A stretch of 34,121 nt of DNA. Origin: Stramenopiles sp. TOSAG23-2. Lineage: Eukaryota. Position numbers and translations under genes: made by a program. Of the stretch, positions 1,277-14,218 are shown piece after piece. The notes under the pieces are model-generated. The model ran no database searches, had not been told where the DNA came from, and was given only the letters and a program-made list of their open reading frames with translations. Position 1 is the first letter of the stretch, and every line of letters starts with the position of its first letter. Location of the stretch: contig LT649352.1 of assembly GCA_900128395.1 (NCBI GenBank), positions 1 to 34,121 of the forward strand, read 5' to 3'.

Positions 1277-2567
1277 ATGATGTCAAATAATAACCAAGAG
1301 GTAACGACGACGACGACGACAACTAATATTCCACATTTTGAAACAAATAATCAAAATGATGATAATAATAATAATAATAACAATAATACAATAGTTATGA
1401 ACGAGAATAACTCAAATGATATCCCATGCAAATTAGATAAATATTCAGAGCCTGAGATGACAATTGCAAGAATGTTGACAAACTTCAATATGGTTAGTAT
1501 TGCAACGAATGAGAGTTGCCCTATTGTACAACTTGGTGACTTGGTAAAGTCCAGAGGACGTACCATGGTAGGTACGAAACTAGTTCGATGTGATGGTGTA
1601 TTGATTATATCACCTTTGAAATCGTCGGTACCACCTTTATTGACGAAAATGGAATGGGAAAAAATATTAAAAAACATGTGTAATAGTAAATCCATACATC
1701 ATAATAAATCTGTAAAATTATATCGGGAAAAAATGAAACACATTATAAAGCAAACTGGATATAATATTTTTGTTGAACGGCCAATGTCGTTTGAAATATT
1801 ACTTGAGAATTTACAACGTGGTTTCTACGATGAAAGCAATGGACAACGTATATTATATCATGAAGATACTAATGTAACCATGGAGAAATCGAACCCAGGT
1901 ATTAGCAATGATACTGTTGGTAATGATACTAGTAAAGCCATTTTTGATTATTGGAATATCGAAGTGTTACCAAAAGAACAGCGTCCAGTCGATATGTTGT
2001 TTTTACAAGATTTAAATTTACTATGGGAAAATGTTGCTGCATATGATTGCCAATTAAGGCGCACCATGAATACAAGCGTAGCTGATGAAATGTTGATGAT
2101 TGCAAAAAATGTAGAATATGGATTGACCGAAGAGGCCATGAAAGTATGGTTTGAACGGAAAGAAGTATTTAAACCTACCATACAAAATGTAGATAAAGAT
2201 AAAGACACTTTGCAGAAAGCCTACTTGCAATTAATTGATAACATGGTAAATGATCCGCAGTGTGAAATATTTTTGGAACCAGTAGATGTGGAGGGTCTCG
2301 GCTTGATCGATTACAACGATGTTATTAAGAAACCGATGGATTTTAGTACGCTAAGGCAAAATGTCTTAGAAAAAAATGTATATAACAATATCGAAGCATT
2401 TGCATATGACTTACGCTTAATTTTTCAAAATTGCTGCACATATAATCCACCCGATTCTTATTTATGGGTTTTAAGCAGGGTATTGTTGCAACGAACAGAA
2501 CGTGCATTGCTTGCCGTTTTTGGAAGATCAGAACAAATTATGCCATCAATTGCAAAGAAACACGACG

Positions 2568-2604
<37 letters not shown>

Positions 2605-9600: not shown

Positions 9601-12600
9601 AGGTACTTTGAATGGGAAACGCAAGCGGAAAGGAATCGCTGCTACTGCAACTGCAACAGATGGAAATAGTAAGCATCAAACGAAGAAGAAAGCTAAGTTG
9701 TATGCACATAATCCTTACAACGACAAAATAAGAAAAGTTACCGCAAAAACTTTAGGATTAAAAAAACATGATATGGAAATATCAACGGCAGAAAGGTATA
9801 AATTTCATAAAAACGCTGTGAAATTTGAAATTGGATATGCAAAGGAGTTGCTAAAATATCTCAACAAAGAAGGAAACAGTCCAGGAACCTTCCAAGAATA
9901 TGTCGTGAAGGAGGGTAGGACTAAGGAAGATGATGTAATGGAATACGATCCGATGACAGCTTCACGGGACTTTCCACAATCTGATATTCTTTATAAGAAG
10001 CTAGGGATGCAACTGGAAAATGTCGATATAAATGAATTTGGTTCCATGGGATTTTATCGCGGCGCAGGATTTACGGCCGCATGTGACCAGGCTTTAGGTA
10101 TATTGAATAAATTTATTAAACAGAAGACGATACGCAAGGAGATCTATGACATACGTGCCGATTTGCGAACCGAGCAAAATGCGACCGTTACAAATCAGTT
10201 TGAACACCAGGTGTATGTGAATATTTCTAAAGTTCTGAAAAACTGTGGCAAGATATTTTTTAGTTATTTTAATTTATTAGTTGTACCAAGAATTTTGCAA
10301 AAAAAATCGCTTTTGTGGAGGTTACAAGAGATTTTTTTAATAGTCGACTCCGGTAAATGTGGGAAAATGCGAAAAGGTTATATTCAGGATAGTCTTAAAT
10401 CTATTATTGTAGATGATGGAGCCGAATTACCATTGGAACGGTTCACAACGGAGCAGAATGACAGTAAAGGATTGCAACAAGCTAATGCAAACGAAGACGT
10501 TGCTATGAAATGGCGATATGGTGTGCATTGGGCATTTATTCACGACGAGAATACATGCAAAAAACTGTTCAAAATGCGATTTGATTATGTTGACCGTTAT
10601 ATATTTACAGAGCGACAGACTACCCTTTCATCACGGAAACTTTTAAAATATTTAAGACAAGAATATCCGGTTAAAGAAGCGATTGATAAGACTATGTCCA
10701 TGATGAGAAAGCAATACATTGGCGAAGATAGATATTATAATCGATATTGGTACTTTGTTCGTGGGGCAAGCGATCCTTACAGATCCAGCTATATATTTGT
10801 TGAATTATCTACCTTCGGGGCAAAACGGTACCACAGTGCATGGTATGCAGCATCAAATATTATCGGAAAAAGTTCCATAAATGATTTAAACAGTGGCATG
10901 ATGATGCAAATTGAAGATGATGAGAAAGATACGTCATATCTAGCAGGTTCATGGTTCTGTGTAGCTGGTGAAACACAATTAAAACGATTGATGCTTTCTT
11001 TAAACCCAGAAGGCAGAAGAGAATCTAAATTGCTTATTTCTCTAGCGAAACAATACGAACTGTTCATACACGTTTCTAAAAATATTAACCCAACGATATA
11101 TAACCCACGTGTTTCCATGTCAGCGTTTCCACAAGAAATAGTTTCTGTCCAATTAATGTTGAATATAGATGATGGGCATTGTGGTGTAACATTAAAGAGC
11201 ATACCGTGGTTTTTTGGCGGTTGCACGTTTATTGAGATTATTGAGCCAGGTTCTCAACTCCCTGATGTCAGCAACGGTATAACAGAAGTTCAAAGAGTGC
11301 AGTTGGGAGATTTCGTTGTATCAGTTGATGGTGTTAATGTAGAAAATTACACAACTAAAGATATATCAATGTTGATCTTGGACCGATTTGCACTTGCTGC
11401 TACGAAAGGGAAGGATTTTATACGACTCGCAGTGTGGAGAAATGATAAGCAAGTCAATATTGTCAATAGGCCGTTGTTAGCCAGCGCTCCACGTCTAGCC
11501 TACGGGCCTATACAATTAATGCATATTCATTTATTGCGTTGTGAAACGTTTGCATTTAGCGCAATTCATTTGCCAGAGGTACAAGCTATTACAGATAAAT
11601 GGTTATTCATGAATGATACGGATATACATTGGACGTGGCCATGCCTTCGTAATAATTGGCGCAAAAGGTTAATAAGTGCATGTGAAAGTGGTATCTTTAT
11701 AAAACCAAAGGAACTGGCGAAAATGATTGAAGTGTTTGAAGAGGCCTTTGAAACGTTATTACCCCCAGTTAACCTAGGATTTGCAACCCCTGAAGATATG
11801 GAGGAGGCGTATGAAAAGATCACATTTCGAATCAATTCAACAAAGAATGTTGGCCCAGGATTTTACTTGAAAAGGAATTTCGGTTTCTTTGTTGACTTCA
11901 ATGTTTCAAATGATACATTTCCGAAGCCATTTGAATGGAAAAAAGAGTTTGAAAATGTAAAAAATTATACAGACACCGTAAATTTATTAACCTGTGTATG
12001 TACCGAGGTCGGGAGAAGAATAATAAATGCGTTTACATTCAATTCTAAATTACTAGCAATTGAAGACTCTGGAGCAACACATTGGAACTCAACATTTAAA
12101 ATGGAAATTTTGAATTCAGTTAGTAAACAATATGGTTCTATGTTCGATTTTGAAAATAAATCTACGTATGAAAAGCAAGTAAATATTGCATTGAAACATG
12201 TTGCCAATGGTAATAAGAATAGCAGTAATGGCAGTAATAGTAGCAAAGGAACAAAAAAGAGAAATAAAAGAAATTCAAATATATTTGACAAGCAAGGTAA
12301 AGGTATTGATGTTTTAAATTGTATTGATGTAAAACGCAATTCGGATATCGTTAAATATTTCCCGTACTTGCAGAAGCGAAAGAAAACATCATTTATAATA
12401 AATAAAGATGTAGATGGTATTAGCAATGTTGAATACGATTCGGATATCGAGAAAGCTAATCGTGATAATTTAGTCTCAAAATTAGGTGAAGGTGTTTTGC
12501 AAAAGGCAAAAGACTTGGAAAAAAAGATCAAGTACCTTGAGAAACATGGAATGGACAAGATATGGGATTTATGTGGAACAGATATTGACAAGGAACAAGA

Positions 12601-14218
12601 GAAAAAAAGCCTGGAAAAAATTGAGTCAATGAAAGCAAAAAGAGGAACTTATGCTCAAAAGATGAAAAAGGCAGCAGCCGTTCCATCAACAGGGAAAAAA
12701 GGACCAAAAACAAGATGGTTGAATGAATACAAACGGTATGCAAGAGAATTGCGGGAAAAGATGGAATCTGGCGATACGGATTTAGAAAAAATAGCAATTG
12801 AGATGAAGAAGGTAAATAAAAGGCATTCATATTTGATGGTAAACATGGCAAAGTCCCCAGACAAAATATCACCAGAGTTCAAAGAAATGTCCAAGGAGAT
12901 GGCACTTGTTCGAGGGCGAAAAAAAGCATTGACAGAGGTGAGGGACGAAATCTTAAATGAACGTGGGGCTTCAAATGCAAATCTCGCCCCGGCAGAAATT
13001 AGCAAAGCAGAAAAAGAAAAGGAGGAAGCAAAAAGATTAATCAGAGTGAAACGCGCGAAATACTGGGAAAACCAAATGCAGCAAAACGAGGATGCAATTA
13101 AGGAAGAATATAGAAAGGTAAAGAAAAGAAGAGATGAGAAATTGCAGAAAGAGAAACTCAATGTATATAGGAATGCAAATGGAACCGTTGTTGAAGTCTT
13201 CAAAAGAAGAAAAGATGAATATTTTAGAGGTGTAATAGAATTTCAATCGAATAAACCAGGCCATGAGATTCTATATGGTATTATTGTGTATTTGAACACA
13301 AATAAAAAACCATATGATTCTGGCCCAATATATGAGACAAGATATGAAGCTGCACTCCAATATGATTTCTTGGTCAGAAATTTACTCGGTGTAAAACTCA
13401 GTGAAGGTTTTGTCAATTTTAGTTATAATTCCAGTCTACGAGTAGCACCATTCAATCAATTCAAATATTATTCCAATTTACGTAGTGAAAAATATTTTGT
13501 AGAAGATACCGATACCGCTATAGTAAAAAGATACGTGAAAGGTGGAAACAATAATCACATTAGATCATTGGTTTATTGTCCAATTTCTGGGAAAGGATTC
13601 GATAACGAATTAGCATTTGGAGAATATTTCATAACTACGCATATGGAAGTACAAAATATTAAAACGCAAAAATTGCAGGAAAATTCATTATTAGGTAACA
13701 CTCTCTCCACCGTATTTACAAAGAATGCGAAAAATGTAGGATATAACAGTAACTTCCCCTCAGCGAATCAGCTGATGCATTATTCCACTAATAAGAAAGC
13801 AACTACCATAACTTTAAGTGCACGCAAATTTAAGAGTAGTAGCCAAAAAAGCACGAAGATTAAATTATCACCTAGATCCAGTCAAAGAAAATCTTTCCCA
13901 TGTACCGTTTGTAACGCGGTCTTAATGAGTAGAGATAGTTTTAAGAAACATATGTACGTACAACATCAAGGTGGAAGAGAATCATGGCAGTGTCATATGT
14001 GCAAGAGTGTTCTAGGTTCTAAAGACAGTTTGAAACGGCACTATAGACATGTTCATCAAATTGATCGAAGTATCATTATGGTGGAAGATGGGCATCAATG
14101 CGATATTTGTAAATTATTTTTTGGTACTAATGAAAGTTTAGTAAAACATAAGGACGAAACTATTTGTACGCCAAGACTTGCTTCAGTTGATGGTGCATGT
14201 ATTGTGGTTCCTAAATAA
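1277..14218 (+). CDS. Giant DDT/WHIM-WSD (BAZ/ISWI-partner-like) multidomain chromatin protein with bromodomain, two AP2, ARID, HMG-box, PDZ and C2H2 fingers
   Basis: Uninterrupted 4313-aa ORF. Motifs: bromodomain IFLEPVD..DYNDVIKKPMDF..NCCTYN; AP2 FHGV..LGIFSTITEAARAFDKAA..ARLNF; DDT-like CMHVAECFDLFSKAF..LGQMHILLMRAI; ARID PVLNRESIDMYMLYSWVIKRGGY..W..YEKYL; HMG MADLLKDVSQKWDNLD..YEDLA; WHIM1 YSALNAAEKILVLSWLCD; WSD IGEDRYYNRYWYF..LNPEGRRESKL; PDZ VQLGDFVVSVDGVNV; second AP2 YFRGV..YETRYEAALQYD; C2H2 fingers at the C-terminus. Confidence 0.93.
2568..2603 (+). repeat. (AAT)n coding microsatellite (poly-Asn)
   Basis: Run of aat triplets in frame; a similar tract lies at about 1363-1390. Confidence 0.9.
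6636..6705 (+). repeat. (GAA/GAG)n coding repeat (poly-Glu acidic tract)
   Basis: gaagaagaa... encoding a long Glu run ending ..DEEEEDD. Confidence 0.9.

Follow-up and report, generated by a model that had tools for sequence, protein, structure and literature searches.

A 4313-codon open reading frame in a stramenopile predicts an ISWI accessory subunit with nested chromatin domains

Contig LT649352.1 of Stramenopiles sp. TOSAG23-2 (assembly GCA_900128395.1) was analysed over 34,121 nucleotides, the whole stretch being referred to below as the window. Its forward strand carries a single open reading frame (ORF) of 4313 codons (1277..14218), with an in-frame stop 18 codons upstream. The predicted product, P0001, combines WHIM1 and WSD motifs and a divergent DDT segment with putative DNA-binding domains, bromodomains, a Tudor/KOW-like barrel and a PDZ-like domain. 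We consider it quite probable that P0001 is a non-catalytic DDT/WHIM accessory subunit of the host ISWI ATPase, which would clamp the SLIDE domain and linker DNA while its other modules choose the site. The host, a eukaryote whose assembly comes to 32.8 Mb, is probably a MAST-4 stramenopile on the basis of one 18-base match: its 18S gene matches exactly the site of a probe given as 'MAST 4' in the available text of PMC4234645.

A single conserved reading frame

The ORF is real and needs no intron. The original prediction, drawn from the letters of the window, had proposed one 4313-amino acid (aa) frame, and this was borne out in other sequence sets. Two relatives from other assemblies (L010 and L011, about 99% DNA identity; 2 out of 170 pattern matches) keep the frame open over aa 385-4313 and aa 774-4313, respectively, and two ENA contigs cover aa 1-484 with the same start (P0157) and aa 3281-4313 (P0152). 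Because it is open in L010 and L011, the frame is no assembly accident. Over 3923 codons compared with L010, 34 changes are replacements and 30 are silent (ratio of nonsynonymous to synonymous differences, pN/pS, 0.28), and over 3538 codons compared with L011 the numbers are 29 and 24 (pN/pS 0.30); the two comparisons share many changes and are not independent. Orthologue fragments, about 50% identical and colinear, cover aa 41-137, 228-549, 796-1244, 1296-1425, 1629-2100 and 3022-3482. These sequence comparisons indicate that selection is acting on the ORF. A search for full-length homologues with aa 300-4313, among proteins of 2372-7548 aa, scored none of 1761 candidates, an outcome set by a word-index limit that says nothing on whether such homologues exist.

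Of 21 listed sequencing runs, 14 are recorded as RNA, and four, from four studies, were aligned to the ORF. RNA-library contigs of these four runs covered 22, 20, 26 and 24 bins out of 30, and none of the four runs had a contig in the upstream bin; the 32 pieces listed, to which 185 further ones add, may include DNA, and parts of the ORF lacking such cover were given no weight. Among the pieces listed there was no GT-AG joint in any of the four runs. One transcript for the whole ORF is likely.

An ISWI-docking core dispersed along the protein

The segments of the putative docking core, and two helical elements that accompany it, are as follows:

4244..4522, forward strand: divergent DDT, helix 1 of which is modelled on ISWI SLIDE; Pfam E 0.044, below cut-off
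6209..6301, forward strand: helix with a TW..IL pattern (TW helix); conserved in orthologues P0112 and P0010, aligned to a paralogue
9239..9367, forward strand: WHIM1; Pfam 20.9 bits in a segment scan, aa 2660-2688, cut-off 19.1
10700..11053, forward strand: WSD (WHIM2+3) with GxD motif (G3149-E-D3151); Pfam E 1.9e-15, aa 3143-3259, profile positions 1-68 of 69
11504..11761, forward strand: helical module, by eye of the type seen after WSD; conserved in orthologue P0153, no Pfam match

WHIM1 and the GxD-bearing WSD stand in canonical order and both exceed the Pfam cut-off, WHIM1 in the segment scan (16.9 bits in the whole-protein scan). P0001 is placed in the DDT/WHIM class because of these two matches, which uphold the WSD (10703-11050) and WHIM1 (9257-9350) of the original prediction; its feature coordinates were in general accurate to within tens of bases. 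The WSD of P0001 scores 63.6 bits, against 54.2 and 48 bits in two paralogues of the same genome. For the originally predicted DDT (4259-4505) the evidence is divided: an alignment to a paralogous DDT and the modelled SLIDE contact described below speak for it, and the profile searches fell short. The segment aligns end to end with the Pfam-positive DDT of paralogue C1391 at 20% identity, keeping IP.NLLG and the helix pattern; three of the four rows of the DDT alignment match DDT, one of them being the paralogue itself, and the alignment had no match in the PDB. Orthologues conserve both the DDT and the WSD cores.

The core is spread out along the chain. In P0001 the DDT ends at about residue 1080, the TW helix lies at 1659, WHIM1 at 2660 and WSD at 3143, the corresponding positions in C1391 being 423, 457, 726 and 991. 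The gap between DDT and the TW helix is thus about 35 aa in the paralogue, compared with about 580 aa in P0001. We infer that the two helices are equivalent; a single-sequence profile derived from the paralogue scored at chance level on P0001. In all, the DDT, WHIM1 and WSD pieces of P0001 are 1,600-2,100 residues apart, with other domains nested between them: ARID and HMG between DDT and the TW helix; a bromodomain (BD3), a barrel and another bromodomain (BD4) between the TW helix and WHIM1; and PDZ between WSD and the following helical module, which directly follows WSD in a fragment of a third WSD gene (C6213). This nested layout was no part of the original prediction. The distant orthologue P0010 has ARID, TW helix, BD3 and barrel and lacks HMG; because of this, domain accretion appears from the sequences to differ among relatives.

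A predicted clamp on the SLIDE domain

A genome search found one SLIDE-bearing ATPase as host ISWI (C1355, E 2.6e-40; one of three candidates scored). Its SANT-SLIDE part was modelled, without alignments, together with three parts of P0001: DDT (984-1088), TW helix (1640-1682) and WHIM1 to WSD (2640-3268). This complex model, proposed as a check by the original prediction, passed with a score of 0.74 against 0.00 for the best of three controls, perhaps owing to the solved Ioc3-Isw1 complex; run agreement reached at least 52% of contacts, and the predicted local distance difference test (pLDDT) of the partners was at least 77. In calibration, 51 of 78 solved microbial pairs and 2 of 108 mismatched ones came up to this mark, as did 39 of 65 solved and 2 of 126 mismatched pairs from eukaryotes.

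The modelled interface comprises DDT helix 1, the C-terminal helix of WHIM1 (aa 2678-2697) and aa 3142-3145 just before GxD, all three touching the SLIDE segment RFDWFIKS. DDT helix 1, through G997, M1000, H1001, E1004 and L1008, sits on SLIDE with an expected error of 1.1 A. That the model treats a sub-threshold segment as a DDT partner is the best support, albeit predicted, for the DDT call. The contacts listed do not include GxD, which is consistent with the accessible portion of PMC11789628. The modelled interface corresponds to the pocket that the available text of PMC8536118 describes for BAZ1B, where DDT and WHIM1-3 form a SLIDE-binding pocket.

DNA-binding modules

Four kinds of putative DNA-binding domain surround or interrupt the core:

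3833..4051, forward strand: AP2 domain 1; phmmer match to WRI1 (PDB) at E 4.7e-9, AP2 profile 44.3 bits
5027..5374, forward strand: ARID, then a conserved GAPIG motif; Pfam E 2.7e-14, aa 1251-1335
5582..5776, forward strand: probable HMG box; Pfam 21.0 bits against a cut-off of 22.4, orthologue P0016 passing at 23.3
13214..13426, forward strand: weak, divergent AP2-like domain 2; AP2 profile 5.5 bits, E 0.0011, best control 2.2
13895..14146, forward strand: three C2H2 zinc fingers; Pfam segment scan, 3 stretches, 33.3 bits, cut-off 27

The AP2 profile was built from 424 AP2 domains of non-orthologous proteins, with 50 shuffles and a reversal as controls (best, 2.2 bits). The first AP2 domain had no match to Pfam AP2, and the second none to an AP2 domain in the PDB. 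That P0001 would carry four kinds of DNA-binding domain, as originally proposed, is supported at family level: the AP2 at 3833-4040, the ARID at 5030-5285 and the C2H2 fingers at 13895-14170 all stand, and each kind is predicted to bind DNA. The HMG box (5579-5780) is itself below the Pfam cut-off and gains its support from the orthologue, and the second AP2 (13220-13420) is weak, with a profile score above its controls.

The GAPIG motif after ARID is common to P0010, P0026, P0030 and P0040. P0030 and P0040 are unnamed proteins with the same arrangement of ARID and downstream GAPIG as P0001, a possible marker of a wider ARID subfamily. Elsewhere in the genome, a 995-codon frame (L018 917-3904, G000:C1413) holds an AP2-like domain, after which a SANT-like domain and a PHD finger can be made out by eye.

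Bromodomains, barrels and PDZ

The remaining features of P0001 are as follows:

1652..2146 (aa 126-290), forward strand: degenerate bromodomain BD1 with an insertion of about 55 aa, Tyr-Asp for Tyr-Asn; Pfam E 0.0099, 20.2 bits
2204..2521, forward strand: canonical bromodomain BD2, Tyr-Asn kept (Y389-N390); Pfam E 4.6e-20, aa 317-397
3269..3616, forward strand: probable Lys/Glu-rich coiled coil; by composition, 39 K/R and 24 D/E in aa 701-800
6545..7012 (aa 1757-1912), forward strand: degenerate BD3 with a poly-Glu insert, without Tyr-Asn; orthologue P0010 Pfam E 0.0017, 20.2 bits
7088..7261, forward strand: Tudor/KOW-like SH3 barrel; pLDDT 67-84, TDRD3 Tudor at Z 7.9, root-mean-square deviation (rmsd) 1.7, 54 residues aligned
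7961..8311 (aa 2229-2345), forward strand: probable fourth bromodomain BD4, degenerate; 4.9 bits, matching profile positions 5-79 of 115
8654..8836, forward strand: candidate second barrel, unconfirmed; no match in Pfam or with a profile of the first barrel
11144..11446, forward strand: PDZ-like domain; Pfam E 0.0013, below cut-off, orthologue P0153 E 0.0073

Acetyl-lysine-binding bromodomains carry Tyr-Asn at the end of helix B. In P0001, BD2 has this pair, and BD1, BD3 and BD4 lack it at the equivalent position. BD2, the bromodomain originally noted at 2209-2520, also matches bromodomains in its model (Z 8.1, rmsd 3.5, 103 aligned). The three degenerate copies are additions to the original list. 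BD1 and BD4 were scored with a profile free of rows from the studied stretch (best of 100 shuffles, 1.1 bits), and BD4 had no Pfam match. BD3 matched BRD3 at E 0.12 and scored 7.0 bits with a bromodomain profile that held BD3 orthologues; its independent support comes from the orthologue P0010 and from a modelled four-helix bundle (PHIP bromodomain at Z 7.2, rmsd 4.2, 102 aligned), which unrelated bundles match equally well.

In the AlphaFold model of aa 975-2008, confidence was confined to BD3 and the barrel. The barrel (7094-7250 in the original prediction, as SH3/KOW- or Tudor-like) resembles the Tudor domain of TDRD3 and is tied with KOW/NusG, the latter giving the best Foldseek hit (E 0.023). 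Foldseek of this region model returned no match at E <= 0.001, the ESM Atlas no usable match for aa 975-2008, and the genome search no other copy of the barrel. A second barrel proposed at 8660-8820 received no support from any search. The PDZ (11180-11440) is below the Pfam cut-off and is probable from the orthologue match and its position after WSD, which is the same in C1391; the coiled coil (3270-3610) stands on its Lys/Glu-rich composition. Two further stretches, 7289-7501 (aa 2005-2075) and 9644-10670 (aa 2790-3130), are conserved or globular-looking, have no family match and may be additional domains.

Comparison with known systems

Members of the ACF1/BAZ1/Itc1 subfamily have an N-terminal WAC domain and, in animals, a C-terminal PHD-bromodomain; those of the BAZ2/TIP5 subfamily have MBD/TAM and a C-terminal PHD-bromodomain; and plant RLT proteins have a homeodomain and HARE-HTH. 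Plant DDT proteins use a homeodomain, zf-4CXXC_R1 or PHD. Pfam scans of the whole protein and of 30 segments gave no match to WAC, PHD, MBD/TAM, homeodomain, HARE-HTH or zf-4CXXC_R1, and by its predicted domain content P0001 falls outside the ACF1, BAZ2 and RLT subfamilies.

Like P0001 with its candidate DDT, animal BAZ1A/ACF1, BAZ1B/WSTF and BAZ2A/B have the order DDT-WHIM1-WSD together with a bromodomain, which in animals is C-terminal, whereas the bromodomains of P0001 are N-terminal and inside the ISWI module. P0001 further differs by the addition of AP2, ARID, HMG, PDZ and C2H2, and by a distance from DDT to WHIM1 of about 1,580 aa, compared with about 56 aa in BAZ1B (668 to 724 in the available text of PMC8536118). 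In yeast, Ioc3 (ISW1a) and Itc1 (ISW2) bind the ISWI C-terminal domain through a WHIM module ('protein ruler' model), and this resembles the arrangement proposed here. We know of no reader array such as that of P0001 in either Ioc3 or Itc1. Yeast Isw2 is targeted by separate sequence-specific factors, according to the accessible part of PMC7968928, whereas P0001 has its putative DNA-binding domains in cis. Plant RLT, DDR1-3, PTM and DDW1 likewise fuse DDT and WHIM1 to a DNA-binding domain; the available text of 10.1101/2023.01.30.526367 describes plant members fused to other DNA-binding domains, and binding of DDR1/3 to the ISWI orthologues CHR11/17.

A further comparison is with the ISWI complexes of Toxoplasma, another lineage of the SAR group (stramenopiles, alveolates and Rhizaria): TgSNF2h-AP2VIII-2-TgRFTS and TgSNF2L-AP2X-4 associate ISWI with an AP2 protein, an RFTS-named protein and WHIM1 proteins, the binding of TgSNF2L to AP2X-4 and WHIM1 proteins being given in the accessible portions of 10.1101/2025.09.03.673926 and PMC12215852. 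These partners are separate polypeptides, whereas P0001 is one chain with an unconfirmed RFTS, and the likeness is at the level of partner types.

Within the host genome, paralogue C1391 (about 3,530 aa) resembles P0001 in having DDT, a split bromodomain before WHIM1, and WSD followed by PDZ. It differs by an N-terminal Tudor, a canonical DDT and a canonical bromodomain after the PDZs, and it had no ARID, AP2, HMG or C2H2 match; its BLAST similarity to P0001 is at bromodomain level only. The order in this gene (G000:C1391:6067-16725, L004/L005) is Tudor, DDT, split bromodomain, WHIM1, AT-hook, WSD, PDZ and bromodomain, followed by about five copies of an unnamed repeat of about 70 aa that has no Pfam match. 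The third WSD gene (G000:C6213:295-945, L006) is a fragment with no PDZ between WSD and the helical module.

Alternative explanations

A DDT/WHIM1/WSD partner of ISWI, as originally proposed, is supported by the WHIM1 and WSD matches, their order, the single SLIDE-bearing ISWI found and the complex model. Several points weigh against it. The model pass may come from the like complex Ioc3-Isw1 (2Y9Y); because this complex is solved, the pass indicates likeness rather than binding, and it does not tell which family member binds. The job had four chains, unlike those of the calibration, and non-partner chains had pLDDT of 41-45. The main ISWI partners might instead be the two other WSD proteins that the genome encodes. 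The DDT match spans 18 of 58 profile positions below the Pfam cut-off (E 0.044), a profile built on the C1391 DDT scored the segment at the level of shuffled sequences, and hhalign of the two gave a probability of 9%. This weakness is what would be seen if the segment were no working DDT, P0001 binding ISWI through WHIM1 and WSD and using its N-terminal half as an independent DNA-binding arm, and there is a precedent in the ciliate ICOP proteins with WSD as the only domain detected, as given in the available text of PMC11789628. We hold this to be unlikely, given the DDT alignment with its conserved IP.NLLG and helix pattern, and a model that places the helix on SLIDE beside WHIM1 and WSD. The paralogue C1391, whose DDT is canonical (E 9e-11) and whose spacing is compact, raises another prospect, that it is the true ISWI subunit and P0001 a transcription-factor-like scaffold with a decayed ISWI module that works without ISWI, relying on its bromodomain, PDZ and DNA-binding domains; the degeneracy of three of the four bromodomains, of DDT and of the second AP2 would fit. 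Decay is, however, hard to reconcile with a WSD that outscores those of both paralogues and keeps GxD, with orthologues that conserve the DDT and WSD cores, and with the model pass, and we judge this slightly less probable again than a non-working DDT.

Finally, the ORF might be an assembly chimera or a read-through of several neighbouring genes. No RNA contig spans it (the longest among the pieces listed is 1470 nt), so that the contigs give no ORF-long transcript; one contig joins 3486 to 5990, and seven of eight rows with insertions or deletions in RNA contigs would shift the frame. But each of these rows comes from a single contig, and six are insertions of A at A-runs, the other two being one in-frame change and one single-base loss; the 3486-5990 joint is anchored by only 22 letters at its shorter end. 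As the same frame is open in L010, L011, P0157 and P0152, and runs for 4313 codons without a stop at about 35% GC, a chimera or read-through is very improbable. The accessory subunit of ISWI thus remains our preferred explanation.

A candidate split RFTS

Two segments flank BD1 and BD2:

1454..1624, forward strand: beta-rich stretch, conserved; by eye a candidate for the N-terminal half of a split RFTS, unconfirmed
2765..3010, forward strand: RFTS-like segment of the original prediction, candidate C-terminal half, unconfirmed; conserved in orthologue P0159

The first is also conserved in an orthologue (P0166, 58% over aa 41-137) and matched no family. By eye, aa 60-116 and aa 497-578 resemble what we take to be the motifs of the first and second RFTS halves; the resemblance is unconfirmed. 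The RFTS-like segment originally placed at 2774-2950 was not backed by any search: RFTS (DNMT1-RFD, PF12047) gave no match in Pfam, the PDB, an own-genome family search or a paralogue search, and the ESM Atlas returned only unnamed bacterial clusters under 0.9. Each of these searches would have difficulty with a domain split by an insert of about 380 aa. AlphaFold of aa 45-600 had a mean pLDDT of 32, with 2765..3010 under 50, and the fold search recovered BD2 only. No DNMT1-like N-terminus for an in-genome comparison was seen by eye in three of six listed DNA-methylase places. One of the methylase genes (L015 2361-5024, G000:C749) is a frame of 887 codons that encodes a C5 DNA methylase domain, by eye without such an N-terminus; C774 and C1429 look like DNMT2-type enzymes.

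It is a tentative and rather doubtful idea that aa 60-116 and 497-578 form one RFTS split by BD1 and BD2, in which case P0001 would unite in one chain the counterparts of the Toxoplasma SNF2h partners, namely an RFTS protein, an AP2 factor and a WHIM docking module. If true, an ISWI-AP2-RFTS targeting complex would be common to stramenopiles and alveolates, with a link to the AP2/RFTS ISWI complex by which Toxoplasma controls its stage-specific expression. P0001 would also be a natural protein nested at three levels, in which both the ISWI clamp and the RFTS fold survive very large insertions.

Other features of the window

Downstream of the ORF, a miniature inverted-repeat transposable element (MITE)-like sequence (15900-16130) has 38-nt inverted arms, 97% complementary and 116 nt apart, and 88 matching stretches on about 40 scored genome places. 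It is followed by two intronless genes, one of the 2-hydroxyacid dehydrogenase family (16886-18163; by eye an NAD-dependent formate dehydrogenase, with 41% GC, above its surroundings) and one of beta-lactamase fold, esterase-like (26275-27657; Pfam PF00144, E 2.9e-50). At 31425-33879, ankyrin repeats and then a histone deacetylase domain lie in two ORFs that are probably one spliced gene.

Discussion

We propose the following mode of action for P0001. DDT helix 1, WHIM1 and the first residues of WSD would converge across 1,600-2,100 residues to clamp the SLIDE domain of ISWI, as in the complex model; by analogy with the family, this clamp would contact linker DNA and help set nucleosome spacing. 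The modules that loop out of this clamp or extend it at the ends would bring ISWI to chosen chromatin. AP2, ARID, HMG and C2H2 are predicted to bind DNA, BD2 acetylated histone tails, and the Tudor/KOW barrel methylated tails or nucleic acid; BD1, BD3 and BD4, without Tyr-Asn, are probably spacers or protein-contact surfaces, and PDZ may serve as an adaptor. P0001 would thus be a self-targeting ISWI subunit, providing in cis what yeast and Toxoplasma ISWI obtain from separate transcription factors.

The family is known and architecturally promiscuous, WHIM proteins having multiple architectures in the accessible part of PMC11789628; what would be new is the nested combination of domains. The original prediction, which did not recognise this architecture from any characterised protein, is sustained in that the combination was not found in the literature searched, where published figures or supplements may show similar stramenopile or apicomplexan architectures, and no stramenopile DDT/WHIM subunit was found there. 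Its strangeness was overrated, given the multiple WHIM architectures and a paralogue that likewise has its PDZ behind WSD and a bromodomain lying between DDT and WHIM1.

ISWI is conserved across eukaryotes, and its targeting is little known outside animals, plants and yeast. On our analysis, ISWI targeting would be hard-wired into an accessory subunit in this uncultured and abundant marine protist. The SLIDE clamp, moreover, may tolerate inserts of more than 1,500 residues, which bears on the dependence of the 'protein ruler' on the chain between its motifs.

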